Origin: a virus
Taxonomy: Duplodnaviria; Heunggongvirae; Uroviricota; Caudoviricetes
Length of the DNA: 35,006 nt
IMG/VR virus record: IMGVR_UViG_2778261448_000009
Location: 1-35,006 of that record
Strand: one strand, 5' to 3'
Below, piece by piece: positions 1,240-34,695 of this stretch; position 1 is the first letter of the stretch; every line of letters begins with the position of its first letter. Both the position numbers and the translations under genes were made by a program. The notes beneath the pieces are model-generated. The model was not told the DNA's origin. It did no database searches and saw only the letters and a program-made list of their open reading frames with translations.

Positions 1240-1702
1240 CTCGAATCCTCCTACAATGTGGATTAATGATTTCTTAAAAAAGAGCGTTAACCGCTCACTA
1301 TTATTTATATGGGGATTGTATTTTATTTTTCAACCCCTCACATTTATCTCTTATATATGTATTTATAACAGAGATATGTTAAAATGTTATTCAGATGTTA
1401 TCAGACGTGTTAAATGTGTTAAACCGCAGCACGAATTGCTAAAGCGGAGAGCACGAATTAACCAAATTGATGTATATTCAATCAATTTAGAAAAAGGCAT
1501 AGCACTTTTTGCTAAAGCGGTGAGCATTAATTGAGCTATGAATTGTAAAGATTTGTTACAAGATTTTCTCTCAGATCCAAATCTTCACAGACATATAACA
1601 ATTTAACACGGTGATAACAATAGGAAGGAAAATCGGTAAATTTTCACTTTCAATACAAATATTATAACATATTTATCTCTAATTGTCAAGTGTAGCACCG
1701 AT

Positions 1703-2359: not shown

Positions 2360-2561
2360 TAAATTGCTTCCGGATTATTATTTCTCCAAAAGAAAGATTC
2401 TTATATTCTAAAGATACTTCTTCGTTTTGATGATGATTTAATCAAAATCTATGAAGGAGGCGAAGCCGACTGAATACCAATTCCTTTCAAATTAGACAAA
2501 AATTTCTCGTTATAAATAATAGTGAACTTACTTTGATTCACTTTTTTAGAGGATTTCCACT

Positions 2562-3011
2562 ATGATCAATACTAAAACTCCTTTCATTCTTCTGGGTCTG
2601 AACCATGATGATAATCTGGCTATGATGCATGTTTTCGCTAATCGTGGTTATAACATCATTCGTCATTCCGAAGACTCCAATTTCTCAACTGCTTTCTATG
2701 CTCTTAAACGTAATGGTCGCCCTACGGTGATCGTAGACTGCTTTACTGATGAAGGTCGTGAACAATACAACAACATTCCGGCAATTATTGTTCGTGATGA
2801 CCTGCCGTTTGATGTTCGTGAATATGACGTTGATTTAGGCTCTTACTATGGGATCGCCGATCTTGACCAGATTATGGCTGATTATGGTAAACAACCCGCT
2901 CAGGAAGCCCCAGAACACGATGAACAAGACGAAGATGACGACTACACACCAATCTGTTTCTCTTCTCACGGTGGCTTCTACGGTTACGATGAAGGCTTAG
3001 ATATGCTGTAA
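2562..3011 (+). CDS. hypothetical strongly acidic protein, 149 aa (candidate early anti-restriction or DNA-mimic protein, speculative)
   Basis: GAGG-type RBS before the ATG; I count about 29 D/E against 10 K/R, with a C-terminal EAPEHDEQDEDDDY cluster; first ORF downstream of the 1.3 kb noncoding region. Confidence 0.6.
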   Translation: MINTKTPFILLGLNHDDNLAMMHVFANRGYNIIRHSEDSNFSTAFYALKRNGRPTVIVDCFTDEGREQYNNIPAIIVRDDLPFDVREYDVDLGSYYGIADLDQIMADYGKQPAQEAPEHDEQDEDDDYTPICFSSHGGFYGYDEGLDML

Positions 3012-3464: not shown

Positions 3465-3565
3465 TAAATTTCTATTATAAATAAAATTGTTCCGCGCGCC
3501 GTTGGCGTGTGGACAGTTAAAAACAGGAGAATCAATCACTAAACCGTTTAAGGGGAATTTTTACT

Positions 3566-4414
3566 ATGAATACTGTTACTACTATGAATACTGCTGTTAA
3601 AACTGCTTCCGTGTCTCTGGTTGTTGATAACACCAAACCGCTGACCATGTCTACTTTGCAGATCGCGGAATTAACCGGAAAGAATCATAAAGATGTTATG
3701 CGTGATTTTCGTAATATGGTTGATTCGCTTGAAAAGGGTAGCAAACTGGTCGGAGGAGATGAGCGCAATTTTGCGCCCATCGGTTTTTATAAAGAAACGA
3801 CTTATAAAGATTCTCTGAATCGTAATAAACCGATGTATGAACTGGATGAAGATCTCTGTAATACTCTGGTTATGGGATACGATGCACCGCTTCGCTTCAA
3901 AATTGCTAAAGAATGGCGTTTGATGAAAGAAGGTAAAGCTAATGTTCCGGTTAATCCATATGAACACTTTGAAGAAACAGACTGGATCGAACTGGCGTTA
4001 AAGAAAACTCGCGAAAACAAACAACTGATTGAACTTCATGTTCGCAAATCCGTAGATAGCCATTCTATGACACGTCTGTTAGGCGCTAAAAAGGGCGCTA
4101 CGAAGGTTAAAGAAGCACTGACGGCCTTGCGTACTGCTGGCTACATTGAGCGCGTCTATGATGAAAATAACAAGCCGTGTGGGTATGTTGCTAATGACTC
4201 TTCTCTGTCTTTCTGCCGCATGAATGCTCACTACCAACTTGAGTTTACTGTTGATGTTCTTCCTGTGTTGGTTGAATTGGGCATTTTGGAAGAAGAACAG
4301 AAAGCAACTCTTAAACTACCGCAGCCAAATAACACTATTCTGATTCAAAACAAAGCTGCTAAACAGATTCGTGAATCAGGTAACGTAATTTCCCTTGTTG
4401 ATTTTGGGATCTGA
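3566..4414 (+). CDS. Rha-family phage regulatory protein, 282 aa
   Basis: N-terminal segment LTMSTLQIAELTGKNHKDVMRDFRNM matches the signature I recall for the Rha (Phage_pRha) family; RBS AAGGGG before the ATG; TGA stop. Confidence 0.65.
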   Translation: MNTVTTMNTAVKTASVSLVVDNTKPLTMSTLQIAELTGKNHKDVMRDFRNMVDSLEKGSKLVGGDERNFAPIGFYKETTYKDSLNRNKPMYELDEDLCNTLVMGYDAPLRFKIAKEWRLMKEGKANVPVNPYEHFEETDWIELALKKTRENKQLIELHVRKSVDSHSMTRLLGAKKGATKVKEALTALRTAGYIERVYDENNKPCGYVANDSSLSFCRMNAHYQLEFTVDVLPVLVELGILEEEQKATLKLPQPNNTILIQNKAAKQIRESGNVISLVDFGI

Positions 4415-4420
4415 TTAATC

Positions 4421-4451
4421 GCCCGGCGCATAATTGCGCTGGGCTTTTTTG
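4421..4451 (+). terminator. rho-independent terminator after the Rha gene
   Basis: Stem GCCCGGCGC/GCGCTGGGC with one mismatch, loop ATAATT, then TTTTTT. Confidence 0.6.
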
Positions 4452-4462
4452 TATCTGATGCA

Positions 4463-4568
4463 TCCAGATTTGGATTTCTAGAAAGAATCAACCACTTAGA
4501 TAGATACGCTGAACTTTAAGCACATCCCCTCAGTTTTGAGGGCATCTATAGATCAGTCCAAATCTGGA
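4463..4568. repeat. perfect 12-bp inverted repeats TCCAGATTTGGA / TCCAAATCTGGA enclosing an 82-bp segment with an internal hairpin
   Basis: Arms at 4463-4474 and 4557-4568; internal hairpin CCCTCA-GTTT-TGAGGG at about 4528-4543; the element lies between two convergent terminators. Confidence 0.7.
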
Positions 4569-4610
4569 CTCAACTTAGAAATGAGCGCAGTTTTGCGCCG
4601 ATTGTTTTAC

Positions 4611-4638
4611 ATACAAAAAAGCCACTCCGAAGAGTGGC
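4611..4638 (-). terminator. rho-independent terminator for the minus-strand genes, UUCG loop
   Basis: Minus strand reads GCCACTC-TTCG-GAGTGGC followed by TTTTTT. Confidence 0.65.
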
Positions 4639-4653
4639 AAAGAGAATCAAAAC

Positions 4654-4887
4654 TCAAAAACCTGTTGCTTCTACGATCTGACCATCACCGATCTGAACAT
4701 AGAATTTAATGTCTAACTTCTTCATATTCTTATAGAATTGGGCGATTGAGATCCCATGTTCACTAAGAATCTGTTCTTTCGCTTCCTTACCACGATCCGC
4801 TGTATAGTAAGCGTAGGCAATATCAGCCATCTGTTCAGCGTTAAAACGGCAAGGACGACCGCGAGTAGCTTTAGTAGTCATAGTCAT
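4654..4887 (-). CDS. small putative DNA-binding protein, 77 aa
   Basis: Complete ORF ending in TGA; N-terminal TRGRPCRF and an HTH-like ISIAQFYKNMKKLDI segment. Confidence 0.5.
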   Translation of the reverse strand: MTMTTKATRGRPCRFNAEQMADIAYAYYTADRGKEAKEQILSEHGISIAQFYKNMKKLDIKFYVQIGDGQIVEATGF

Positions 4888-4915
4888 TTCTCCAAATTAA
4901 AGTGAATGTTCACCT

Positions 4916-5521
4916 TTATTTAGAGGACTTACATTTTATCGGAAAAAGTTCTCCATCGTCAATACTCATAAAGAACTCTACCTTAATCCCGTACTTCCTC
5001 AGCCGTGAATAATATGTACCCCGACTAATATCAACCTTGCGAAGCACTTCGAAGAACCCTGTAGGATCGTTGTAATAGTGGCTATATTTCACGTTAGCGA
5101 GTTCAACGAATAGTTCCCTTGTATCACCATAGCCTTTCTTGAAAGCCTCGTTACGATAGCGTGTAATTGCGTGATTCAATCTCTTCTGTTTCAACACTTC
5201 TCGGATCGGTGTCCACTGCAAACGATAGATAGGACCGTCATCCACTCGATAATAACGCTTGATATCAAAATCAAACCAATCTCGGACTCTCCGAAACTCT
5301 GTATGTGATGTTCTATGCTTCTTAAAGAAGTTGTGAACGTCTGTATAACCATTATCGCGGTAAAACTCTATTAAAATCTCTTTCGCTTCCTCACGACTAA
5401 AGCCAGATGTTGTGTAGTCGGTTTTTAAATGCTTATGCTTAACTGGCAAACGATATTCATGATCGGTACAACAAGACAAGGCTAATTCTACTTCATCTCT
5501 TTGTTGCTGATTAATTAGCAT
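4916..5521 (-). CDS. hypothetical basic protein, 201 aa, with HTH-like segments
   Basis: Complete ORF with TAA stop; segments such as [14 protein letters not shown] resemble the HTH of the 60-aa protein at 1057-1239; function unknown. Confidence 0.5.
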
Positions 5522-5606
5522 ACAACCCCCTTTAATTAATACCCGTATTTATCAAAATATCAACAATTTAATAAATACCTTCATATTTCGTAATGAGGGT
5601 AATTAC

Positions 5607-7511
5607 ATGAAACTGATTTCAAATAAGGCAAAATTAAAAAAGATTCTCAAAAATGCAGCCAAATATATTACGCCACCGCCTAAGCTCCTTCCTTCTGAAT
5701 GGTGCGAAGCGAATCTAACGCTAGTCGATGGTCCTCGTGCTGGGGATAAAGTTAAATTACTGTCATTTCAGAAAGGCATGATTGATGCTCCTTTCCTTGA
5801 GAAGAAAAAGAAGTACGTTTTTTGTACGAGTGCACAGATCGGAAAGACGACCATCATGTCAGGGATTATGTTTAACCAGATGGCAAACGATCCGTGTAAT
5901 ATCATTATCGGGCAAAGTACCGCTAAAGAAGTGGCTATGTACTTGAATACTAAGATCCGTCCTTCTATTGAAGCATGTCCGGCATTACAGGAAGTGGTAA
6001 CAGATAAGAATGATCGTAATGCGGTAAACAACAATAACCAGATTCAGCTAAAAACAAACCATTTCCTTTACATGGTTTCTTTGACCAGTCCTTCAAGTTT
6101 GCGCGGGCGTACTGCCAAGTTAGGGATTGTAGACGAATGCGACGCAGCAACAATCACCGAAGAAGGTTGCCCGGTGGCACTAACTGCAAACCGTTTAACT
6201 ACCTTTGGTGATGAAGCTCGATTGATTGTTTCTAGTACCCCGACCAATAAGCTGGGAATTATTAACCAGCAATGGTTATCAAGCGATATGCGTATGTTTT
6301 TTGTTCCGTGTCCTCATTGCGGGGAACACCAGGTGATCGAGTGGGAAAACGTACAGTTTGAATGGCGTAACATTGATGGTAAGAACTTACCCGATCCTGA
6401 TACCGCTCGTTATATTTGCCCCCACTGTAAGAACGCATGGACAGAAGGAGAGCGGATCAGGGCGGTGGCACAAGGAGAGTGGAGAGCAACCCGTGAAAGT
6501 GAAGTAGCAGGATTCTGGATCAGCCGTCTGTATTCACCTTTCAGCACGATCCGCGCTTGTGTGGTTGATTTTAGTCATGCGTGGCAATCCTTTGATTTAC
6601 AATCATTTTATAACACCGTGTTAGGCAAGGTATACGACGATCAGGACACGGCAGTAGAAGCAAATGAACTGGAACAACTCAAAACAGATGTTTCTATCGA
6701 GAATATCCCTGATGACGTGATTTTCTTGTGTGCGGGTACTGACCAGCAATTAGATCGCGCAGAAACTACAATCATGGGCGTGGCAAAGGATAAGATTTAT
6801 ATTCTGGATCATCGCAGCTTTTACGATCATAACTGTGAACGATATGAATCCCCTGTATGGGATAGATTAATCAACTTCCATAAAACCAAATTTACTACTG
6901 TATCGGGTGATCGTGTTCCTATGCTCGCCAGCTTCCTTGATACATCGAACGGTCGATTCACTCAAGCCGGATACCGTATTTGCGGCAAGTGGAAGAACTT
7001 ACACGCTATCAAAGGTAGTTCTGCTGGTAACGCTCCGATCATTCCGGTTAAACCTACCCGCACAGGTGGTCATGAATTGCTTATGTTGGGTGTTAACGTG
7101 GGTAAAACTGCATTTCGTGAAATGTTGGCTAGGAACCTGAAAGATAATCCTCATATTAGCTTAGAAATATCAGACACCGTTCCTGATGATTATTTCGATC
7201 AGCTTTTAAGTGAATCTGTTAAGCGTACTACTACTGGCGTGAGATGGGTAAAGAACCCAGGCGTTAGGAACGAGGCGCTCGACTGCGCCGTGTATGCTAC
7301 AGCGGCTTCTCGCTACGTTCTTTCAAAAATGTCATGGGATAAACTCATTGCAATGAAAGACAGCTTAAACCGTGTTGTCGAAGAACCCGTAAAAGCTCCT
7401 AAATCGCAATCTAACGAGCAAATCGAAGAAACTAAGCCAATCACACGACCACAACGTCAAAACATCGCCAGACGTCCAAATAGAGGACGTAGCTGGATAA
7501 CATCGTTCTAA
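5607..7511 (+). CDS. terminase large subunit, lambda GpA family, 634 aa
   Basis: Motifs shared with my recollection of lambda gpA: CPHCGEHQV (lambda ACPHCGEEQ), [14 protein letters not shown] (lambda YSPFTT), [10 protein letters not shown] (lambda GIDSQLDRYE), [15 protein letters not shown] (lambda RRNEALDCFVYALAA). RBS GAGGG before the ATG. Confidence 0.85.
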
Positions 7512-13428: not shown

Positions 13429-16400
13429 ATGCAATCAATCCAATTTAAACGCACACAGACGGCTGGTAAAAAGCCGACGCCGGAACAATTATCACAGGGT
13501 GAAATCGCCTTACAGTTGGCGGATCATGTGATTTACACCAAAGACAAAAATAATAACGTAGTCCAAATTAGTGTTTCTCCAGAAAAACACGCTGAACTGA
13601 ATACGAAAGTAGACACCAACAAGGTCAATACAGATAAAGTCATTTCAGCAAATAAAACCGAAGCCGCTAATAATCTGGCTAGTGCTAAAGCTGAACTGAA
13701 TCAGACTATCACTTCTACCCGTGATACTCTCAATGCTTCAATCACTGCTGGCGATACCGCAGCCAACAAACGAATTGATGCTTTGACTACCACAGTAGGT
13801 AACAATAAAACCGAAGCGGCTAACGCTCTGGCGGCTGCTAAGACTGAACTGAATCAGACTATTACTTCAACCCGCGATACTATCAACGCGACAATTAACA
13901 AGAACAAGACAGATATTAATGCGCGAGTTGATCAGACGAATACCAACGTTACCAACTTAACGAATACTGTCGCAGCAAATAAATCAGCAATAGAAAAGAC
14001 GGTAGCGGATAATAAGAAAGATGCGGACACGAAGATCACCAATCTTACTAGTACGGTCTCTGCGAATAAGACGGCCATTGAAAGAACTGTTGCAAATAAC
14101 AAGGCCAGTGCCGATGCCGCAATTGCCGCAGCTAATCAGCGAATTGATTCGATTGAAGGTAGTGCCGATGCTGCTTACATCAAGAAGAATACCAACACTT
14201 ACCATCACGGCTATCTGTTAACCAAAACAGCTAACTATTTGGAAGACCAGACAGCGAGAGATCTTAACTACTTTGGTGCTTTCCGTACCAATGGTCAAGA
14301 TGGACTCATGGATCTAACTCTTAACGTTCCTCACTCTGCCGGCAAAGCGCACGGTCGCGGATTTACTTTCCGTTATGCGTCTGGTGGATCTCGTGTTGAA
14401 ACCTATGGTTTTGATAGAGAAGGACAGAAGAACTTTAGCTATAAGATGTATCACGAAGGTGATAAGCCGACTCCTGGCGAGATTGGTGCATACACCAAAG
14501 CCGAAGTTGATAAGATGTTTGTTAAAAACGTCGTTATGTCTGTTCCCAATTCTAGCGAAAACGTATCTGCATATTTCAAATTGGCAACCGCAACAATTCC
14601 ACAAAACGGGCGTAGTGTGTTTTTCCGTATTCATGGTGGTAATGGTTACAACGTTACGGCATATGACCAAGTTGATGTAGTAGAAATTCTTCTCCGTAGT
14701 GGTAACGATAGACCTAAAGGTCTTAACGTAATTGCATACCGTAGAAATACAAACAAAGATTTTGAGGTATTTGCTGTCAATACTTCCGGTGATAACTATG
14801 ATATCTACGTGAAATATCAGCGTTATACCGATAACGTTATTGTCGAATATGGGAAATCTGTTTATGTAAGTTTGACGGTTTATGATACGCCGGAAGCCAC
14901 GTTAATTAAACCTTCCGTTGGTGTTATCGGTGGTCGCAACGTAACTCTTTTTAACACAGAAAATAAACGTGGTGTGTTGAGTTTTGACGATAACACACAA
15001 AATAGTTATGATATTGTTCACTTGAGTAATGATAGGGGTACTGGTCGGAAATATATTCGTAAATTCCGTAGCAACTATAACGAAATGATCTGGCATGAGA
15101 CGGTTCAAGGTTCTACTTATCGACTCGCCACGGGTAGTACAGATTCTCAGGAGATTCTATCCGTTGAATCTAGTAGCTCTATTGCTGGGACTCATAAAGG
15201 TAATATTCTTTCTGGTCGAATGATGTTGGGTGGCGGTAGTAATGTTATTACCTTGCGGCGTCCTGCTGGTCAATCCAACCATATTGCGTTTCAAGATAAT
15301 CGGACTGGAGATATTACCCGTCAAGGGTGGATCGGTTATGGTAATGCTGATACTAACGTTTTTGAATGGTATAGTGATGTAGGTGGTACTTCTATTCGTC
15401 ACCACATAGACGGACAGATCGAATTTCAGACAGGTAACACAAAACGAGTTTATACTAACGCTCAATTCATCTCAATGAATAGCGACGCCTACCGCATGAT
15501 CTACGGTAATTATGGTGCATTCTGGCGTAATGACGGCAATAAAGTTTATCTTCTTTCTACTGCCGAAAATGATAAATTGGGCGGATGGAATGGAAACAGA
15601 CCGTTCATTTACGATTTGACTAACGGTAAAGTTACTTTAGGCGGTGATGGTAACGAAGGTGCATTAGTTCTTGAAAGAGATAGCCGTGCTGCCCGTTTTA
15701 GCAACAATGTATTCTTAGAAAAAGGACTGCTTACTTTCTCTGCTGGTGGAAATCAGTCGATGGATTCTTTTACGATTAACCATTGGGGGAATAGTAATGC
15801 CAATCGATATAACGTTTTGCAATTCCAGGACACTAGCGGAACTCACTTTACTACAGAACGTAACGGTACTGGTGGCTTACTTGCTCATTTCCGAGGGGAT
15901 TTAACTACCGAAGGAAAATTAACGTGGGGCAAAAATACAGCTACTTCTAGCTTTAATATCCGTGCGTGGGGTGCTGATGCTCGTAAACAAGTATTCGAAT
16001 GTGCGGACGAAAGCGGTTGGCACTGGTACACACAACGACCGGGCGGTCCGGGTACTGAATTAATCGAGTTTGCCATCAACGGTACTGTTAAACCTAAAGC
16101 AATTCACACTGGCGGTAATATCACGCTTAACGGTGCTGATATTGAGTTTCGTCGCAGTGGCAATAAGCATTTGTGGTTTAGAGATCCAAATGGCTTAGAA
16201 TTGGGTCTGTTGTACTGCGATGATGCTGGCGTTATGCGTATGCGCGGTGAGAAACAAACCGAAGTCTGGAAATTCGGCGGTAAGATGATTCACCTTGAAA
16301 CGGGCACTGTATCCGGTGGCGGTAATGGTCTTATTCGTGGTAGCGTTGCTGGTGGTAGTTGGGCTAGCTGGCGTGATCGTGCTTCTGGTATTCAGGTCGA

Positions 16401-16965
16401 TTGTCAACAATCAACCGATTCCGCTCATAACGTATGGAAAGCAACCCATCAAGGTAAATATCATATCGCAGCAATGGGTGTACATGTTCCTAGCGGTACT
16501 ATCGGTAACGCTACAGTTAAACTTCATGTTCATGACGCTGGTTTTGACTTTAACGCTGCTGGTGACTTTACCGCAGGTCGTAACGGTTCGTTTAACGATG
16601 TTTACATTCGCTCTGACTCCCGTTTGAAGATTAACAAGGAAGAATTACAGGACGGTGCATTAGAGAAAGTAAACTCCCTGAAAGTATACTCTTACGATAA
16701 AGTTAAATCTCTTTCCGATGACACAGTGATTAAACGCGAAGTAGGTATTATTGCTCAGGATCTGGAAAAAGTATTACCGGAAGCAGTAGGTATTCAATCC
16801 ACCGAAGATCCAGAACATCCAGAAGCAATCAAGACTATTTCTAACTCTGCTGTCAATGCTTTAATCATCAAAGCAATGCAGGAAATGACCGCTAAGTTTG
16901 ATGCTATGGCTAAAGAACTTGCCGAAACTAAAGCTGAATTAGCCGAACTGAAAGCAACTAAATAA
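13429..16965 (+). CDS. side tail fibre, 1178 aa, with C-terminal intramolecular chaperone (peptidase S74-like) domain
   Basis: N-terminus MQSIQFKRTQTAGKKPTPEQLSQGEIALQLADHVIY; tandem about 50-aa repeats (NKTEAAN-LA-AK-ELNQTITSTRDT) at nt about 13650-13900; C-terminal SDSRLKINKEELQDG...VGIIAQDLEKVLPEAV followed by a coiled coil, as in self-cleaving fibre chaperone domains. Confidence 0.75.
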   Translation: MQSIQFKRTQTAGKKPTPEQLSQGEIALQLADHVIYTKDKNNNVVQISVSPEKHAELNTKVDTNKVNTDKVISANKTEAANNLASAKAELNQTITSTRDTLNASITAGDTAANKRIDALTTTVGNNKTEAANALAAAKTELNQTITSTRDTINATINKNKTDINARVDQTNTNVTNLTNTVAANKSAIEKTVADNKKDADTKITNLTSTVSANKTAIERTVANNKASADAAIAAANQRIDSIEGSADAAYIKKNTNTYHHGYLLTKTANYLEDQTARDLNYFGAFRTNGQDGLMDLTLNVPHSAGKAHGRGFTFRYASGGSRVETYGFDREGQKNFSYKMYHEGDKPTPGEIGAYTKAEVDKMFVKNVVMSVPNSSENVSAYFKLATATIPQNGRSVFFRIHGGNGYNVTAYDQVDVVEILLRSGNDRPKGLNVIAYRRNTNKDFEVFAVNTSGDNYDIYVKYQRYTDNVIVEYGKSVYVSLTVYDTPEATLIKPSVGVIGGRNVTLFNTENKRGVLSFDDNTQNSYDIVHLSNDRGTGRKYIRKFRSNYNEMIWHETVQGSTYRLATGSTDSQEILSVESSSSIAGTHKGNILSGRMMLGGGSNVITLRRPAGQSNHIAFQDNRTGDITRQGWIGYGNADTNVFEWYSDVGGTSIRHHIDGQIEFQTGNTKRVYTNAQFISMNSDAYRMIYGNYGAFWRNDGNKVYLLSTAENDKLGGWNGNRPFIYDLTNGKVTLGGDGNEGALVLERDSRAARFSNNVFLEKGLLTFSAGGNQSMDSFTINHWGNSNANRYNVLQFQDTSGTHFTTERNGTGGLLAHFRGDLTTEGKLTWGKNTATSSFNIRAWGADARKQVFECADESGWHWYTQRPGGPGTELIEFAINGTVKPKAIHTGGNITLNGADIEFRRSGNKHLWFRDPNGLELGLLYCDDAGVMRMRGEKQTEVWKFGGKMIHLETGTVSGGGNGLIRGSVAGGSWASWRDRASGIQVDCQQSTDSAHNVWKATHQGKYHIAAMGVHVPSGTIGNATVKLHVHDAGFDFNAAGDFTAGRNGSFNDVYIRSDSRLKINKEELQDGALEKVNSLKVYSYDKVKSLSDDTVIKREVGIIAQDLEKVLPEAVGIQSTEDPEHPEAIKTISNSAVNALIIKAMQEMTAKFDAMAKELAETKAELAELKATK

Positions 16966-28425: not shown

Positions 28426-28779
28426 ATGTTAAGCAAACATTTTTCTCGCAAGGAATTTAAATGTAAATGCGGAAAATGTGATTATGATACAATCGACGCT
28501 GAATTACTGGTAATTCTTGAGGATGTACGAGAGCACTTCGGTAAACCAGTGATTATTAACAGTGGCAACCGTTGCCCGACTCATAACAAGAATGTAGGCG
28601 GTGCAACCAACAGCTATCACGTTCGAGGCCGTGCGGCTGACATTGTGATCAAGGGTGTCTCCCCTGATATTGTCCATGCTTATCTTGATGGGAAATACCC
28701 TACTCAATACGGCTTAGGCAAATATAAAACCTTTACGCATATCGATTCCAGATCGAAAAAATCACGATGGAATGGATAA
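28426..28779 (+). CDS. endolysin candidate, peptidase M15-like zinc peptidase, 117 aa
   Basis: SRKEFKCKCGKC...NSGNRCPTHN..VGGATNSYHVRGRAADI...FTHIDSR gives an H...D...H metal-ligand pattern as in M15-type phage peptidoglycan peptidases; terminator follows. Confidence 0.65.
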   Translation: MLSKHFSRKEFKCKCGKCDYDTIDAELLVILEDVREHFGKPVIINSGNRCPTHNKNVGGATNSYHVRGRAADIVIKGVSPDIVHAYLDGKYPTQYGLGKYKTFTHIDSRSKKSRWNG

Positions 28780-28784
28780 AATTA

Positions 28785-28810
28785 AAGCGCCTCTAGTGGG
28801 CGCTTTTTTG
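28785..28810. terminator. hairpin terminator between convergent endolysin and helicase genes
   Basis: AGCGCC-TCTAGTG-GGCGCT then TTTTTT on the plus strand. Confidence 0.6.
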
Positions 28811-30301
28811 TTATATAGCAATTGTTTTAGTTGCATAGCTGAACTTGTCGGTTAGATAATAGCGGATTCTCTCAAGTGCATGTTTTACCGCATAATTTTT
28901 ATGCTTGACTTTTCCGTTACGACCGAATATACACAGATGATCTATAAGATCCCAGACCGTTGCAATATCCTTAGAACCATGTTTACGCAATGCACGACCG
29001 ATACTCTGACGAACGATAGTTGATTCCTTCACGGGATGACCGAAAATAACATGGTGCAAATTCTTAATTGAAACACCAGTAGAGAAAACACCATAGGAAG
29101 CAACACAAATGATCCCTGTTTCCCCTTCCGCTAATTTCTTAAATTCATCACGTTCTTCTGTCTTAACTCCACCGTCAATATAATAAACCTTGTCGTGTAC
29201 CTTCTGTAACGCGTCATACATAAGTTTTCCGTGCTTAGTATTGCGGAACATCAGGAATACGTTTTCGCCCTTCTTAGCGAGTTTTAGCGCCAAATTACAA
29301 GCAAACTTATTACGTCGTGGGTTAGACGTAATATACTTGATCTCTTCCGCATATTCTCTACCCTTAACCGCGCTACATTCCTCATCGGTATAACGAAGGA
29401 AAAGACAGTTGATTTTCAGTTTCGTCACTTGACCTTCTTCCATCAGGCGGTCAATACTCACGATCTTAGAAATATCACCGAAAAGACCGACATACTGTAA
29501 AAGATGGCATTTTGATTCTTTAGGGGAACCAGTCATGCCGATTTTAAACTGGCAATGATTCATTCCGTTGATGATATTGGTAATATTTTTGGCACTAGCC
29601 TTATGTGATTCATCAACTATCAACATTCCATATTGTCGGAACCATTCAGGAGGCATCTTGCAAGCTGATTGCCATGTTGAAACAGTGATTAGCCTATCTC
29701 CCGGATGTTTCCCGCTACCACTCATCATTGTATGAATTGCTTCATAAGGGAATAACCGATAATCGATGAAATCATCCCTCATTTGAACCACTAGCGATGT
29801 AGTAGGGACAATGATTAACACTTTTCCGGTGTAGTTCTCTAAGTACCAACGAGACAGCATACAAGCAATCAATGACTTACCCGCACTGGTAGGAAGAACC
29901 AGCATTCTACGGCGATTATGAATACCCTGAAAGACTGCCTCCCTTTGATACCAGTAAGGATTGATTTTATTGGAACCGGAATACACTTCTAGGGAATCAA
30001 TCCATTCATTAATCGCGTCTTTGGTTACATCTTCCTTCTCAAGCAATCGCGGGTCAATCCAGACTGAATAGCCCATATTTTTAACGAAGACACCCAACGT
30101 TTTTAATAGTCCAATTGGTAGGGTATTTTCATGCGTAAACAGTCTTATTCGTCCATCCCAGCCGGAATACTTGTAGCGGGGGCTAAACCTAGCCCCTTCA
30201 ACCTCAAACGAGAAATAATCCCTTAATTCCATTCCGATAGAAGGAGAGCAATCAACCTTAACGAAACTGTAATCTTGAAAATGAATTTTAATATCTTGCA
30301 T
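28811..30301 (-). CDS. uvsW: UvsW-like SF2 DNA helicase (T4 UvsW homolog), about 496 aa
   Basis: Near-collinear with T4 UvsW as I recall it: MQDIKIHFQDYSFVKVDC..., PYWYQREAVFQGIHNRRRMLVLPTSAGKS (Walker A), LIIVPTTSL, MLIVDESH (motif II), YIDGGV, ICVASYGVFSTGVSIKNLHHV, GRALRKHGSKDIATVWDLID. I place the start at the ATG at 30301-30299, overlapping the upstream stop as TAATG. Confidence 0.85.
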   Translation of the reverse strand: MQDIKIHFQDYSFVKVDCSPSIGMELRDYFSFEVEGARFSPRYKYSGWDGRIRLFTHENTLPIGLLKTLGVFVKNMGYSVWIDPRLLEKEDVTKDAINEWIDSLEVYSGSNKINPYWYQREAVFQGIHNRRRMLVLPTSAGKSLIACMLSRWYLENYTGKVLIIVPTTSLVVQMRDDFIDYRLFPYEAIHTMMSGSGKHPGDRLITVSTWQSACKMPPEWFRQYGMLIVDESHKASAKNITNIINGMNHCQFKIGMTGSPKESKCHLLQYVGLFGDISKIVSIDRLMEEGQVTKLKINCLFLRYTDEECSAVKGREYAEEIKYITSNPRRNKFACNLALKLAKKGENVFLMFRNTKHGKLMYDALQKVHDKVYYIDGGVKTEERDEFKKLAEGETGIICVASYGVFSTGVSIKNLHHVIFGHPVKESTIVRQSIGRALRKHGSKDIATVWDLIDHLCIFGRNGKVKHKNYAVKHALERIRYYLTDKFSYATKTIAI

Positions 30302-30870
30302 TAGTTCCACTCCACACTTGCAATATTCTTTATATTGTTTAGTGATTTATTGCAGTAGTGGAATGTTTCAGTTTTGCCGTATTCAATCCCGCCTATACCC
30401 ACATCCAGTAATCTCTTTATTGCTCTTTCAGTGGCTAAAGCATGTTTCATTGATGGCATTTCACCAGCAAAGACAATATCAAAGTTATGACCGGGATTGC
30501 GTACACCCAGATTAATGCGTCGCTTGATGATTGACTTTGTAACACCAAATTTACCAATATCCCCTGATTTCATTACATAGAGATAAGGCACACCCGCTTT
30601 ATATTGAAAGTAATCACTTTTGAGACATGCACAGCGTTTACCTTCATTAAGCAGGTTGGTAGCTGATTTGTCGGCTCTATTGCCGCATCGGGTACATGTA
30701 AGAGCAATTCTTGAATGAAGCCCTTTAAACTCACCCAGAAAGCCATGAAAGACTAACGGTAAGTCCTTCTCTTTGATGTGAGTCAGAATGCGTTGTTCTA
30801 ATGCCGATGGAGTTACAGCACGGGAGGATTTAGGAGTAAAAACAATATCTTTAGCCATTACTGGAATCAT
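30301..30870 (-). CDS. T5orf172-domain (GIY-YIG-like) protein with N-terminal zinc-ribbon-like CxxC pairs, 189 aa
   Basis: PYLYVMKSGDIGKFGVTKSIIKRRINLG fits the T5orf172 signature as I recall it; CTRCGN...CAC cysteine pairs; GAGG before the ATG; translationally coupled to the helicase gene. Confidence 0.55.
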   Translation of the reverse strand: MIPVMAKDIVFTPKSSRAVTPSALEQRILTHIKEKDLPLVFHGFLGEFKGLHSRIALTCTRCGNRADKSATNLLNEGKRCACLKSDYFQYKAGVPYLYVMKSGDIGKFGVTKSIIKRRINLGVRNPGHNFDIVFAGEMPSMKHALATERAIKRLLDVGIGGIEYGKTETFHYCNKSLNNIKNIASVEWN

Positions 30871-31023
30871 ATAGACCTCACTTTTTAACTTATAGGCATA
30901 ACCTCAATATGGTTGGTTTGGGATTTAGGGTCGCGTATTATACACATCCAGATAGAGAATGCAATAGTAAGACAATTTTCTCTAATAAATAGTAGTGATC
31001 TTATTATTTTAGAGGAAACTACT

Positions 31024-32199
31024 ATGAAACTTGCTTACGCTGCCGAAATTCCTTTTGTTAAGAAAACTCGCGGTTTATCGCCGGAAGAGTACCAACAACG
31101 AATCATCGCTAAACTGGAACCTGCTTTCGTATTTGGTGGATTTATCCTACCGTGGAAGGGTAATCACACTTACTTTCGAATCTACAATTTAGATACACAA
31201 GAATATAAGGACTACAAATTACGCAAACTGGAAGATACTAACGGGGGGGAGTTATTCCAGACTGAAAAGGCTGTATGGTTGAAAATGGAATCTCGTTGTA
31301 ATGAGAAGGGAAAGAAATTCCTCGGATGGCAAGGAGAATGGAAAGGGCGAAATAGAACGAAAGCCCGTGTTTTGTGCCCTGAACACAATCAAATCATGAC
31401 GCCATCTCTATTACATGCTCTCAAAGATGATTTCGATTTTGATTGCAAAATCTGTATGGCTGAAAAATCCCAACGGGTAAGAAGTGGCAAGACTTTTGAT
31501 GAAGTTATTAAGGACAAAGAGACAATCATCAATGCACGTTGCGAGAGTACGCCTTACACCTTCAAAGGATTCATCATAAACACCCCACACCTAAAGGATG
31601 TTAAATTTAAAACCTATTGCAAGACACATAACCACGAATGGGAATCTCATTTAAGATGTGCTGATTCTTTCACTTGTCCGCTTTGCATTAAAGACCAACT
31701 GGTGCAACTGTCTAACCGGACTTATCAGGGTAAGGCTAGTTTCTACATTCAATTATTAGATGACAAATTTATTAAATTTGGAATCACTACCCGGAAACCA
31801 GAAGAACGAATGAGAGAGCAAACCAGAAAGAGCAACTTCACTCACCGCTTAATCTTTACTCATGAGTTTGAGGATGGTTGGAAAGCCGTTGATTTAGAGC
31901 ATGAAGTAAAACAACGCTTCAAGACTCATGCAGCACCCTACAAAGATTTCAAGGATGGATGGTCGGAAACTCTGACTATTGATGAGTTACCACACTTACA
32001 GCAACTGGTTTATGACTACCTAACCAATCAACCGGACGAGGCTAATATGTGGGTATCCCCGAAAGATGTATTTGATGACGATACATTCAAGCTACATACT
32101 CACTTCTACGGCATCAATAAACCGGAATTTTTCTGTATTGATGACGACAGTCCTGATTTAATGGATGAATACTTTAATACTCTCTTAGATGCTGCCTAA
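31024..32199 (+). CDS. zinc-finger-rich protein with C-terminal T5orf172-like domain, about 391 aa
   Basis: I place the start at the ATG at 31024 after GAGGAA. Several CxxC/CxxH pairs (CPEHNQ, CKIC, CKTHNHEW, CPLC); C-terminal FYIQLLDDKFIKFGITTRKPEERMRE resembles T5orf172/GIY-YIG. Confidence 0.5.
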   Translation: MKLAYAAEIPFVKKTRGLSPEEYQQRIIAKLEPAFVFGGFILPWKGNHTYFRIYNLDTQEYKDYKLRKLEDTNGGELFQTEKAVWLKMESRCNEKGKKFLGWQGEWKGRNRTKARVLCPEHNQIMTPSLLHALKDDFDFDCKICMAEKSQRVRSGKTFDEVIKDKETIINARCESTPYTFKGFIINTPHLKDVKFKTYCKTHNHEWESHLRCADSFTCPLCIKDQLVQLSNRTYQGKASFYIQLLDDKFIKFGITTRKPEERMREQTRKSNFTHRLIFTHEFEDGWKAVDLEHEVKQRFKTHAAPYKDFKDGWSETLTIDELPHLQQLVYDYLTNQPDEANMWVSPKDVFDDDTFKLHTHFYGINKPEFFCIDDDSPDLMDEYFNTLLDAA

Positions 32200-32211
32200 C
32201 GCAATTAAATT

Positions 32212-32245
32212 AAAAAGGGGTACATCTGTACCCCTTAACTGTTTT
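32212..32245. terminator. bidirectional terminator between convergent genes
   Basis: GGGGTAC-ATCT-GTACCCC flanked by an A-run upstream and a T-rich tract downstream. Confidence 0.6.
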
Positions 32246-32272: not shown

Positions 32273-33952
32273 TTAAATTCCAAATTCCTGTAATGGACCT
32301 GGTATTTCCTCTTCTGGTTTCCAGTTCTTATCTGTCAGCATGTCTAAACATGGATGCAGAACAAGCCCGTTGCTCTCCAGAATCTGCCTATCATTGATAG
32401 TCTTCAAATCGACAAATATTTGTCCTTTCCTCGTTCCTCTTGAATTTTCTATTACAACTCTCTGGGTCTTTCCATCGATGTATTCCAGTACAAACAAGTT
32501 TTTGTTTCTGTCAATCCTGCTACACCCGATCCGCTTTAGAGCTTGCTTAATCTTAAACCGGACCTTTAGTCGTTCCTCGTTGTAAACATCTTCTAAATCA
32601 AATTCTGCGAGCTTCTCCCAGCCTTGAGAGTCAACAGAATACATTTCCTCTTCTGCCATCTTGATCTGATTGTAGAGTGTTTCACGCTCGCTATTGAGGG
32701 TAGTAATCTGATCGGCTAGCTCCTTCGTTGCTCCTGTCATAGCAGAAAGGGCAATCAGGTTATCAATCTTGCGTGATATTTCATCAACCTGTACTTTCAA
32801 CGCCGGAACCGGATTAGCCTTGTCCTCAGCAATCCAGATTTTATCAGCCAGCAATTGCAATACAGCTTTCTCTAATTGATCACCTCGAAAACTCCAGTTT
32901 GGATGCTCGCAATCAAGTCTACGTGAACGGGTCGCATCACATGTATAACGATACTGGTCAGAACGTTTGTTCGTTCCCTTCACTTTAACCATAGCGCAAC
33001 CGCAATGATCACATTTCAATAGGCCAATACCACTAAGCAGGGGGATCGGTTTAACTTCTTCCTTGTCTCCAAAGTTCCATGCTCTAGCACCAATATTTTT
33101 CTTAAGGTGATAGAACGTAGGGTCATCAATAACACGAGGGTAATAATCCTTTAACTCATAGTTAACGCCATCTACAGATATTTCCTTGATACCAATCAAA
33201 GCGCGGGTATGAAACAACCTTTCAACCATTGCCCGTGACCATTTTGAATGCTTCTTGTTGCTTACTGCTGGTGGTGGTGCATATGTCTCGTTAAGGTGAT
33301 CCAGTATTTCGGCGGTTGAACGTCCATTCTTCCGTAATTCCACAATCTCCTGAACAACAGGGAAGTATGTAGGATGAGGCAACACATAACCGGAAGTGGT
33401 ATCAGTCCACCACATATTCTTTCCAACTTCCTCGATTGCCACTGCCGGATTCTGGGGATTTTCTTGATGGGCTTTAATCTTAATCAGTGCGCTTGAGTTA
33501 GTACGATTGCGCTTAGTCTGACTTTCCTCATTACCACGGATGAATAAAAGGATGGAGAACATCAGGTCCATCGGATTAGCGGTAACAGTATCCAGCGAGT
33601 AGATCTTGTTATCCATGCCAGTAACAATGGTTATTCCCCTACGGATGATTGAAAGGAATAACTCCTGCGCACTGACAATATCGGCACGGGATAAGCGGTC
33701 CAAGTTTTCAATGAATAGCCAGCTACCAACAGGAACGGATCTACCAATTGCATCAAGGAAACGAGATAGCGCCCCTGTTTTAGAGTTAGCACCCTTAAAC
33801 GCAGATACACCCAGATCCTGATAATCATTTACCAGTTCAAGGTCATACTTTGCCGCAATCTCTCTCGCCATCCTGATTTGTCGTTCATAACTCGAACCAT
33901 CACTCTGACGCATAGACGAGAAGCGAATATACGAATATAGTTTAGTTTTCAT
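32273..33952 (-). CDS. large serine recombinase (candidate integrase), about 559 aa
   Basis: N-terminal resolvase-type catalytic region YSYIRFSSMRQSDGSSYERQ with candidate nucleophile Ser and RLSR; Cys cluster CDHCGCAMVKVKG...YRYTCD (zinc ribbon); coiled-coil region; length typical of large serine recombinases. I place the start at the ATG at 33952; the track begins at an upstream TTG. Confidence 0.8.
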   Translation of the reverse strand: MKTKLYSYIRFSSMRQSDGSSYERQIRMAREIAAKYDLELVNDYQDLGVSAFKGANSKTGALSRFLDAIGRSVPVGSWLFIENLDRLSRADIVSAQELFLSIIRRGITIVTGMDNKIYSLDTVTANPMDLMFSILLFIRGNEESQTKRNRTNSSALIKIKAHQENPQNPAVAIEEVGKNMWWTDTTSGYVLPHPTYFPVVQEIVELRKNGRSTAEILDHLNETYAPPPAVSNKKHSKWSRAMVERLFHTRALIGIKEISVDGVNYELKDYYPRVIDDPTFYHLKKNIGARAWNFGDKEEVKPIPLLSGIGLLKCDHCGCAMVKVKGTNKRSDQYRYTCDATRSRRLDCEHPNWSFRGDQLEKAVLQLLADKIWIAEDKANPVPALKVQVDEISRKIDNLIALSAMTGATKELADQITTLNSERETLYNQIKMAEEEMYSVDSQGWEKLAEFDLEDVYNEERLKVRFKIKQALKRIGCSRIDRNKNLFVLEYIDGKTQRVVIENSRGTRKGQIFVDLKTINDRQILESNGLVLHPCLDMLTDKNWKPEEEIPGPLQEFGI

Positions 33953-34015: not shown

Positions 34016-34429
34016 TTAAAGAATTTCACGGCAGCTAATCAGGGTATAAGATGTATCACCTTTTTTAACATCAAATATAGGAGAACCATCAATAGAATGC
34101 AGATATTTGATGTAGGATTTACCATCTTCGGAACCATAATATTCTTCTTTCTCGTTCTTATCTTCTTTCAGTTTCGGGCTTTTGATTGTCTTATCATATA
34201 CCGGGTCGTTGAAAGCAAATTGACTATTATCATCATTCACTCGAACTTTCACACCGATAAAACCACGGTATTTGCCAGACGGTGCATGATAATAACGGTC
34301 GCCATCACTCAGGTAGCGTGTATCATCTCCTTTATGTTCGAAGTAGGAATTACACACATAATAGGTATTAGCATTTGCAGCACCAACCAAACCCAGAGCA
34401 AGAACAACACCCGCGATAATCTTTTTCAT
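34016..34429 (-). CDS. secreted protein with cleavable signal peptide, 137 aa (moron-like cargo)
   Basis: MKKIIAGVVLALGLVGAANA followed by a polar mature region with two Cys (near the start and the end); no lipobox; RBS GAGGAAA. Confidence 0.65.
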   Translation of the reverse strand: MKKIIAGVVLALGLVGAANANTYYVCNSYFEHKGDDTRYLSDGDRYYHAPSGKYRGFIGVKVRVNDDNSQFAFNDPVYDKTIKSPKLKEDKNEKEEYYGSEDGKSYIKYLHSIDGSPIFDVKKGDTSYTLISCREIL

Positions 34430-34695
34430 AGTAGAATTTCCTCTTGTTATTTGAATTACGATATATTTATATCATTAAAAATTGATGCTAATTACCAGAC
34501 CAAACACAACCGCACCAATCAAATCAATCCAGTTAATACACAATCCGCTATATTCTTTCTTGAATGTCTTAGATGAAATGCCATCATGAAATTGTTTCAT
34601 TGCTCAACCCATACTAACTACAAGATAAGAAAGACTAATCATGGTTGTGAGACTTCCTCCCACGAATGAGATAAAAGCTAACATGTTTGATTCTC

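Follow-up and report, generated by a model that had tools for sequence, protein, structure and literature searches.

The window analysed here is the 35,006-nucleotide (nt) stretch of IMG/VR virus record IMGVR_UViG_2778261448_000009, which corresponds to a ~38-kb Escherichia coli prophage. In this prophage, a slot flanked by terminators, with the lysis genes on one side and the serine integrase gene on the other, contains a three-gene cargo cassette. It comprises uvsW, which encodes a helicase of the T4 UvsW family, and a divergent pair of genes, here designated S and L, that by their architecture appear to be free-standing homing endonuclease genes. The slot appears to be built from DNA of the uvsY-uvsW-inh region of Krischvirus, the virulent T4-type genus that includes RB49, and exchange with such phages appears to be recent. 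Tentatively, and with slightly less than even confidence, we regard these genes as a homing-nuclease cassette of Krischvirus ancestry that would act as a recombination interface with infecting Krischviruses.

uvsW and Krischvirus DNA in the slot

The uvsW gene (28811-30301, minus strand) encodes a protein of 496 amino acids (aa) from its ATG codon. The program-made list of open reading frames (ORFs) extends this frame upstream to a GTG at 30310; the ATG start was taken instead. The protein matches UvsW_N over the whole Pfam profile (PF21241, residues 3-83; E-value: 2.1e-34), followed by ResIII and Helicase_C, and is collinear with the T4 UvsW structure (PDB 2OCA; residues 3-494 against 2-500; E-value: 1e-183). 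A preliminary description of this DNA had placed three ORFs here and called the helicase near-collinear with T4 UvsW, and both statements are confirmed. Helicase motifs I (PTSAGKS), II (DESH) and VI (QSIGRALR) are intact and invariant across seven alleles. The gene product can be classified from its sequence as a full-length superfamily 2 (SF2) helicase of the T4 UvsW family, with the order of UvsW_N and SF2 core that is found in T4 and in the Krischviruses RB49, Phi1 and G5211. Amino acid identity is 81-84% to the Krischvirus proteins and 52-58% to T4 UvsW over most of the length, falling to 37% in the last ~45 residues. No UvsW relatives were found in two scans of one-genome-per-species bacterial contigs.

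All phage records that match uvsW at the DNA level are RB49-like Krischvirus. The similarity is concentrated in one tract (gene nt 805-1368; 28934-29497, minus strand) that shows 98.9% identity to RB49 across its 564 nt, including 284 nt without a mismatch, and, across 366 nt, 99.5% identity to G5211, including 345 nt without a mismatch. The remainder of the gene is 50-85% identical to any Krischvirus. Three alleles (from the related loci L004, L015 and L019) do not have the tract and carry 71-76% identical sequence in its place. The tract is evidently the product of recent gene conversion from a Krischvirus. Transfer of the whole gene from an RB49-like phage, as the 84-85% identity given by megablast might suggest, was rejected because this figure averages the 99% tract and its 50-85% flanks; unlike a gene transferred whole, the window uvsW is a mosaic of segments with different histories. 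UvsW trees accordingly differ by segment. Over the first 265 aa, G5211 groups with the E. coli prophage alleles, the 5' half of its gene being a diverged allele that is closer to these (82% aa identity) than to RB49 (78%). Over residues 265-460, the window and Salmonella alleles group with RB49. Because the segment-wise trees disagree, the prophage and Krischvirus uvsW genes appear to form a single recombining pool.

Relatives of the prophage carry further Krischvirus DNA at this site. An inh fragment is 96-99% identical at the nt level to phage Whisky in L005 and L008 and 96-97% identical to G5211 in L009 and L010. Since L008 and L010 have one left junction of this fragment in common, and L005 and L009 another, later conversion by different phages is likely. 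A fragment encoding the UvsY C-terminus (L004 1887-2054) matches RB49 at 55/55 aa, and an intact uvsW.1 (L015 6508-6771) is 99% identical to RB49 at the nt level. L019 carries a complete, diverged uvsY (135 aa; 4954-5361) and a gp27/gp51 fragment (5424-5738) that is 100% identical to G5211 over 223 nt. The inh sequence also contributes to PGAP "hypothetical proteins" of 65-147 aa (L006, L008 and L010, 1773-2216). These are chimeric ORFs that run from the end of the endolysin gene through the terminator hairpin and an S-type remnant into the Krischvirus inh fragment, and their inh part matches PHROG 1051 (Inh) and is 93-98% identical to Whisky or G5211 at the aa level.

The position of uvsW in Krischvirus is similarly associated with nucleases, and appears to be a hot spot for homing endonuclease genes. 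A Seg-like GIY-YIG homing endonuclease gene lies directly upstream of uvsW in G5211, AV108, FL20 and PTE-Eco09, the position held by S in the window. In Whisky and JK32, a 361-aa L-type gene lies directly downstream of uvsW; its product is the best phage homologue of L (29% identity), and individual Krischvirus genomes have L-type genes at one to three different loci. The uvsW-inh junction of RB49 is free of nuclease genes. The G5211 gene is of the Seg/Mob type associated with intronless homing, and S has its place and its orientation relative to uvsW. The hypothesis that they are the same homing endonuclease was nevertheless rejected, as the two proteins have no detectable similarity and S has a CapR zinc finger rather than a Seg-type DNA-binding region. 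As a separate observation, the uvsW genes of G5211 (homing endonuclease gene upstream) and RB49 (none) have 59-84% identity up to about codon 320, 88% in codons 321-360 and 97-99% from there on (L001/L002 uvsW 3866-5368). Even inside the virulent genus, then, an exchange boundary lies next to a homing endonuclease gene.

In T4, UvsW is made late and unwinds the R-loops of oriF and oriG, which ends origin replication; it also promotes D-loop branch migration and is needed for break-directed replication (PMC3016281). Comparison with the T4-type context (a late promoter and the partners uvsX, uvsY and gene 32) concerns the setting of the window gene and not the family membership of its protein. 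This setting is unlike that in T4 and Krischvirus: uvsW lies in a temperate siphovirus-type prophage from which uvsX and gene 32 are absent, and uvsY and uvsW.1 are absent from the window. The phage genes have the late promoter TATAAATA upstream, whereas the window uvsW is preceded by S and a sigma70-like promoter.

The uvsW ORF is intact in 17/17 E. coli copies and in the Salmonella copies. The ratio of nonsynonymous to synonymous substitution (dN/dS), calculated with Nei-Gojobori code written for this analysis, is 0.06-0.2 for uvsW and 0.1-0.4 for S and L where measurable. Purifying selection on uvsW was at first credited to residence in the prophage. This was dropped, as the segment-wise trees point to a pool in common with Krischviruses; in a gene of mosaic origin, this selection cannot be credited solely to residence in the prophage.

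The S and L genes and their control region

S (30301-30870, minus strand) encodes a 189-aa protein with one CapR-type zinc-finger repeat followed by a probable T5orf172/GIY-YIG-fold domain. The zinc finger has the form CxxC...CxC (C59, C62, C80 and C82), which has been reported as the CapR zinc-finger motif (PMC10448857), and is invariant in alleles 42-92% identical to S. Residues Y96, Y98, K107, G109, R117, E148 and TETF167-170 of the nuclease domain are invariant as well. The only significant Pfam match of S itself is to the CapR homology domain (E-value: 1.8e-5), with T5orf172 below the Pfam threshold (E-value: 0.1). Among 12 members of the S family, T5orf172 is matched by 11 and GIY-YIG by six. 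The earlier labelling of this gene as a T5orf172-domain gene agrees with the matches of its family, although its own score is below threshold.

L (31024-32199, plus strand) encodes a 391-aa protein with three CapR-like helix-plus-hairpin repeats followed by a T5orf172/MUG113 GIY-YIG-fold domain. Its start is the ATG at 31024 rather than the TTG at 30913. The three repeats are seen in a predicted structure model of L. Two zinc sites of the form CxxH...CxxC are invariant throughout: C118/H121/C141/C144 (codons 118-144; 31375-31455, plus strand) and C199/H202/C218/C221 (codons 199-221; 31618-31686, plus strand). At least four CxxC-type pairs had been described in this protein; there are indeed four ligand pairs, of which two are CxxC and two are CxxH. 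The nuclease domain (~31729-31983, plus strand) has the invariant residues Y241, K251, G253, R262, E292 and GWSET312-316. In Pfam, L passes for MUG113 (score 27.8, threshold 22.3) and matches CapR (E-value: 4e-10). It narrowly misses T5orf172 (score 19.4, threshold 20).

Both proteins match the PHROG 681 "endonuclease" family (E-values: S 6e-19, L 2e-43), and the catalytic Tyr, Arg and Glu residues of the GIY-YIG core are kept (S Y96, Y98, R117 and E148; L Y241, R262 and E292). No NCBIfam model matches S or L, and neither has a match to any PADLOC-DB v2.0 model at E-values up to 0.01. The helicase has only generic SF2 matches in PADLOC-DB v2.0 (PbeA, type IV/I REase and HamB; E-values of 1e-12 or weaker). 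CapR-type DNA-binding repeats in variable number joined to a nuclease domain characterize the T5orf172 homing endonuclease lineage (Barth, Dunham & Seed 2023, PMC10448857), and the earlier suggestion that genes of this kind are typically selfish and nuclease-like agrees with that assignment. S and L resemble the T5orf172 homing endonucleases of ICP1 and other virulent phages (PMC10448857) in having CapR-type repeats followed by a T5orf172/MUG113 domain, in their position next to a gene of DNA metabolism and at the edges of exchanged DNA, and in a repeat number that varies among alleles. They differ in their location, a prophage cargo slot, and in being arranged divergently around a control region that is shared and conserved. 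Exchange here is between temperate and virulent phages, and homing by S and L is putative.

Two other systems offer partial parallels. The CapR protein of the Vibrio cholerae PLE satellite (Netter et al. 2021, PMC8096241) is likewise a T5orf172/CapR-lineage protein of a chromosomal mobile element, with related genes in a virulent phage of the same host and signs of recent exchange. However, CapR is a repressor of the phage capsid operon, whereas the catalytic residues of S and L are invariant, and the element here is a complete prophage with its own virion genes.

PD-T4-3 is a single-protein GIY-YIG defence, and the cargo hot spots of prophages and satellites hold anti-phage genes. S and L are unlike such defence genes in having no PADLOC match and in belonging by sequence to a homing endonuclease family. 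A defence role for the island, as raised in the preliminary description, is no more than a possibility.

The stop codon of S overlaps the start of uvsW (TAATG, 30299-30303, minus strand), as had been noted before, and a GGAG lies 8 nt 5' of the helicase ATG. The overlap is kept in the E. coli variants. Because Salmonella relatives have a 10-13-nt gap instead, co-translation of S and uvsW, which had been stated for this DNA, is plausible but not universal.

S and the larger, divergent L are separated by a control region of 153 bp (30871-31023), in agreement with the ~150 bp estimated earlier. Phylogenetic footprinting of this region among E. coli and Salmonella variants (the window, L029 6846-7000 and L030 6857-7000) gives 79% column identity. 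The region is more conserved between E. coli and Salmonella than the genes it flanks, whose synonymous sites are saturated. It includes an invariant block, TATAGGCATAACCTC (30892-30906), and a sigma70-like promoter directed toward S with a -10 box TATAAT (30937-30942, minus strand) and a -35 box TTGCAT (30959-30964, minus strand) separated by a 16-nt spacer. The conserved footprint reads GGTCGCG.ATTATA (TATAAT in the direction of S), with TTGCAT or TTGCAA 16 nt upstream among the variants. An automatic sigma70 scan of the 153 bp found no promoter; TTGCAT-16-TATAAT came from the footprinting alone, and is the probable promoter of the S-uvsW unit. An invariant 13-mer, TAAATAGTAGTGA (30986-30998), lies ~25 nt 5' of the L start. 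It occurs exactly once in 25 of 32 fetched loci, these being every locus with L or an L remnant, and in no Krischvirus locus.

The promoter/5' untranslated region (5'UTR) unit preceding L has a paralogue within the prophage itself, upstream of the gene at 2562 (ORF 2562-3011). The repeated promoter-like unit reads TATAAATAATAGTGA (AATAAATAGTAGTGA before L) followed by TTTTAGAGGA...ACTATG, and its copies lie at 1295-1309 (minus strand), 2511-2525 (plus strand) and 30984-30998 (plus strand). This paralogy further weakens the proposal that L is driven by a T4 late promoter and expressed only during T4-type infection, a proposal already weakened by the sequences at that position (AATAAATA in the window and CTAAATA in Salmonella); L005 and L008 have a perfect TATAAATA before L. 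In the phages, RB49 uvsW and the G5211 homing endonuclease gene are each preceded by the T4-type late promoter TATAAATA. As the window has the units of the S-L region in place of this element, the prophage uvsW appears to have been placed under the prophage's own controls, the activity of which is predicted. Elsewhere in the window, two genes have a perfect copy of the T4 late-promoter consensus TATAAATA 35-85 nt upstream: the Rha/Ant gene (copy at 3476-3483) and a 137-aa gene at 34429 (copy at 34464-34471, minus strand). The element is not significantly enriched in the window (six copies against 2.8 expected; 9/100 shuffles reach six).

Variation of the slot among related prophages

The element splits the host gene ycdX and is ~38.4 kb in strain KSC64 (L032 8296-46723). 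Close prophages, 91-98% identical to the window, are present in 58-60 of 5,426 complete E. coli genomes (~1%). The prophage encodes a terminase, portal, capsid-protease fusion, tail tube, tape measure, tail tip, M15 endolysin and large serine recombinase, and is a temperate phage of the siphovirus type. Its early region encodes approximately 10 small proteins with no Pfam matches. No replication gene is recognizable in the ~38-kb element, and uvsW is its sole recognizable DNA-metabolism gene. In a megablast search of the window against sequenced phages, there was no match outside uvsW and the tail-fibre gene.

The slot has sharp edges. A bidirectional terminator hairpin on the left (28784-28806; terminator scan of both strands) separates the M15 endolysin gene (28426-28779) from the 3' end of uvsW, and another on the right (32215-32236; terminator scan and blastn boundaries) separates L from the serine recombinase gene (32273-33952, minus strand). 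The left terminator lies within homology common to all relatives, which ends at 28798-28813; on the right, blastn homology to all relatives starts again at 32185. With a short joint common to relatives at 30976-31028, the conserved joints are 28813, 30976-31028 and 32185.

The content of the slot was scored in 58 related E. coli prophages. The same trio is present in 11, accompanied by an IS911 insertion in one more and represented by diverged alleles in another (13/58 in total). Four have the helicase alone (L003 type), four have a partial match, and 37 have no helicase while keeping the structural, lysis and integrase genes. Sites without the helicase or the nucleases hold other alleles or deletions at the same position; examples are a 193-aa S allele (42% identical), an inh fragment and a 332-aa L allele (27% identical). 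The relatives therefore do not all carry the same genes. Full, partial, alternative and near-empty forms share one site with boundaries at 28798/28813 and 32185; the block is accessory, as had been described, and variable.

The less complete forms are derived by deletion. The helicase-only form of L003 is the full island minus two microhomology deletions. The first lies between 9-bp repeats CACATCCAG (30400-30408 and 30943-30951) and leaves the last 107 nt of S; the second lies between GCTGCC repeats (31039-31044 and 32191-32196) and leaves an in-frame seven-codon mini-ORF (MKLAYAA*). L011, the emptiest site, is L006 minus 113 nt between CTCTGGT repeats, and inh-derived sequence is still present there. 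The deletion traces lie at L003 3401-3409 and 3497-3505 and at L011 1790-1845, and one deletion between direct repeats takes half of the terminator hairpin. Nuclease gene losses in general involve direct repeats of 6-9 bp, and forms lacking S still hold its last ~60 nt. Since the nuclease-less and emptiest forms are microhomology deletion derivatives that hold remnants, all relatives examined appear to stem from cargo-bearing ancestors, with empty sites arising as secondary losses. Insertion of the island into an empty site was rejected on the same grounds. Some relatives also have insertion sequence (IS) elements of the IS3 family, IS911 and IS1 inside the island; in L028 (4907-6060), the insertion leaves only the C-terminal 168 residues of L.

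In Salmonella, prophages belonging to this family likewise have the gene order L, S, uvsW between the recombinase and endolysin genes. Amino acid identity to the window is 78-83% for uvsW, 54-69% for S and 41-65% for L, and 75-77% and 68-78% for the flanking recombinase and endolysin, respectively; synonymous sites are saturated in these comparisons. A recent date for the insertion suggested in the preliminary description is contradicted by this shared slot and by the deletion-derived state of the helicase-only and "empty" forms.

The three genes reassort independently. The window and L004 are 93% identical in S and 36% in L, and L004 and L019 are 98% identical in uvsW, 46% in S and 27% in L. 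Some gene ends are shared across divergent alleles: S alleles that elsewhere have 44-48% identity agree fully over their last 35 codons, and the first codons and last five codons of L, together with its upstream unit and terminator, are common to alleles of 26-65% identity. An obligate two-component system of S and L with the helicase was rejected in view of this reassortment and of the existence of helicase-only and nuclease-only forms. The same facts tell against an obligate form of the coupling that had been described between the helicase and a nuclease gene.

Possible functions of the cassette

The proposed model for a homing-nuclease cassette is as follows. Each nuclease would bind a specific DNA site by means of its zinc-finger repeats and cut homologous DNA that lacks that nuclease gene. 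Candidate targets are other copies of the prophage family and, above all, the uvsY-uvsW-inh region of Krischviruses infecting the lysogen. The break would be repaired by homologous recombination, a reaction that UvsW-type helicases promote, and S and uvsW would be co-transcribed. Repair would carry cassette DNA one way and phage DNA the other; a benefit to the prophage is conjectural. Such a model would explain the allele swaps at fixed junctions, the near-identical Krischvirus tracts and the repeated loss of nucleases by deletion. S and L flank Krischvirus-derived tracts, and it is a published principle that nuclease genes lie where exchanged DNA ends, both among phages and between phages and satellites (PMC10448857).

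Several points weigh against this model. Cleavage, the target site, the direction of transfer and homing are themselves inferred. The prophage family yielded no clean target allele free of the nucleases, all nuclease-less relatives that were examined being deletion derivatives, and among sequenced Krischviruses no copy of S or L exceeds 33% aa identity. Nor do the tracts cluster next to the nuclease genes (the uvsW tract begins ~800 nt from S), and ordinary homologous recombination with phage DNA fragments would also give such tracts. A hitch-hiking uvsW should decay, yet the gene is intact. Finally, the trio is kept in the same slot in Salmonella with a control region that is more conserved than the genes, which suits a maintained function better than a transient selfish element.

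The main rival explanation, although unlikely, is that stolen phage genes form an interference cassette directed against Krischviruses. UvsW made early would unwind the origin R-loops of the incoming phage, S and L would cut its DNA, the truncated Inh and UvsY of relatives could be dominant negatives, and the Krischvirus tracts would be scars of survived encounters. Such a role fits a slot that is typical of prophage moron or defence genes in adjoining the integrase, being bounded by terminators and having its own control region. It also fits the frequent loss expected of a conditionally useful gene, and the persistence of an intact uvsW under purifying selection in an element without UvsX or gp32. 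The shift in timing would come from the replacement of the TATAAATA of RB49 and G5211 by the conserved TTGCAT-16-TATAAT, a putative promoter, given that T4 UvsW is made late and its action on oriF and oriG R-loops terminates origin replication (PMC3016281). However, the activity and timing of that promoter and the toxicity of premature UvsW to RB49-type phages are suppositions. The gp37-type tail fibre that the prophage has in common with Krischviruses implies that the two should meet on the same hosts. Neither nuclease matches a PADLOC model, the helicase matches are generic, and the family of S and L is typical of selfish genes in virulent phages (PMC10448857). The independent reassortment of the three genes argues that the cassette is not a co-evolved system.

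Rather improbable is a purely internal role, with UvsW serving the temperate phage as its own RecG-like fork and D-loop helicase after induction and S and L as unrelated selfish genes parked beside it. The low dN/dS and intact ORFs of uvsW would follow, as would its standing as the only recognizable DNA-metabolism gene and its persistence after loss of both nucleases in the four L003-type genomes. A replication gene would not be expected to be missing from 37 of 58 related E. coli prophages (with four more partial) that keep their structural, lysis and integrase genes, or to lie in a cargo slot outside the early region. The window encodes none of the partners UvsX, UvsY and gp32, and part of the purifying-selection signal may date from Krischvirus genomes, the gene being mosaic.

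A wider reading, in which the prophage would specifically exploit Krischviruses or compete with them, is improbable. Its pointers are the Krischvirus homology (uvsW; uvsY, uvsW.1, inh and gp27/51 in relatives; the gp37-type fibre at 14212-16888), the putative site-specific nucleases, TATAAATA-type elements without -35 boxes upstream of several accessory genes, and the lack of a recognizable replication module. Plasmids with T4 homology and a double-strand break enter T4-type recombination-dependent replication. During a Krischvirus infection, nuclease breaks and homology could let the prophage act as a pirate, its DNA being fed into such replication; or they could plant the nuclease genes in the virulent phage while mistimed UvsW cripples the origin replication of that phage.

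That the slot holds only inert debris, with Krischvirus DNA captured by illegitimate or homologous recombination in a tolerant prophage region and all three genes functionless, is highly improbable: the non-functional pieces in relatives (inh codons 49-187, the C-terminal 55 aa of UvsY and a gp27/51 piece), their chimeric ORFs reading through the terminator and their common deletions and IS insertions are what debris would look like, but the three window genes are intact, their catalytic, zinc and helicase motifs are invariant in alleles down to 38-42% identity, dN/dS is well below 1 and the control region is conserved between E. coli and Salmonella.

The UvsW and T5orf172/CapR nuclease families were known already, as was the occurrence of such nuclease genes at exchange borders (PMC10448857). 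Three features are new: a temperate prophage has a cargo slot apparently assembled from uvsY-uvsW-inh DNA of a virulent T4-type genus; conversion tracts of demonstrably recent date lie in the helicase gene and in neighbouring fragments; and the prophage maintains an intact UvsW with a control region of its own. In full-text literature searches, neither a UvsW carried by a prophage nor this cassette was described in any paper.

The gene pools of virulent T4-like phages and of temperate phages are commonly regarded as almost separate. This locus would be a point of gene flow between them, with tracts 96-100% identical to contemporary RB49-like phages beside homing-endonuclease-type genes. It offers a place to test how DNA moves between virulent and temperate phages, whether prophages serve as reservoirs or launch pads for homing endonucleases, and whether a prophage can turn a stolen phage helicase on its donor. 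As Krischviruses are used against E. coli in phage therapy, they could recombine with such prophages.

Two genes outside the slot bear mention. The tail-fibre gene (1178 aa; 13429-16965) matches Krischvirus gp37, the distal subunit of the long tail fibre, and no other phage gene, at 14212-16888 (~2.7 kb, 75-90% nt identity). The best match is to ELT4 (89.9%), with ECD7 and Phi1 at 82%, and the protein belongs to PHROG 1699 (E-value: 1e-141). This second locus shared with Krischvirus suggests that the prophage and these virulent phages may use the same receptors. On the far side of the recombinase gene and adjoining it, a 137-aa ORF (34016-34429, minus strand) has no Pfam matches. It has a signal-peptide-like N-terminus (MKKIIAGVVLALGLVGAANA) and the upstream TATAAATA noted above, is kept in relatives, and may be a lysogenic-conversion gene.

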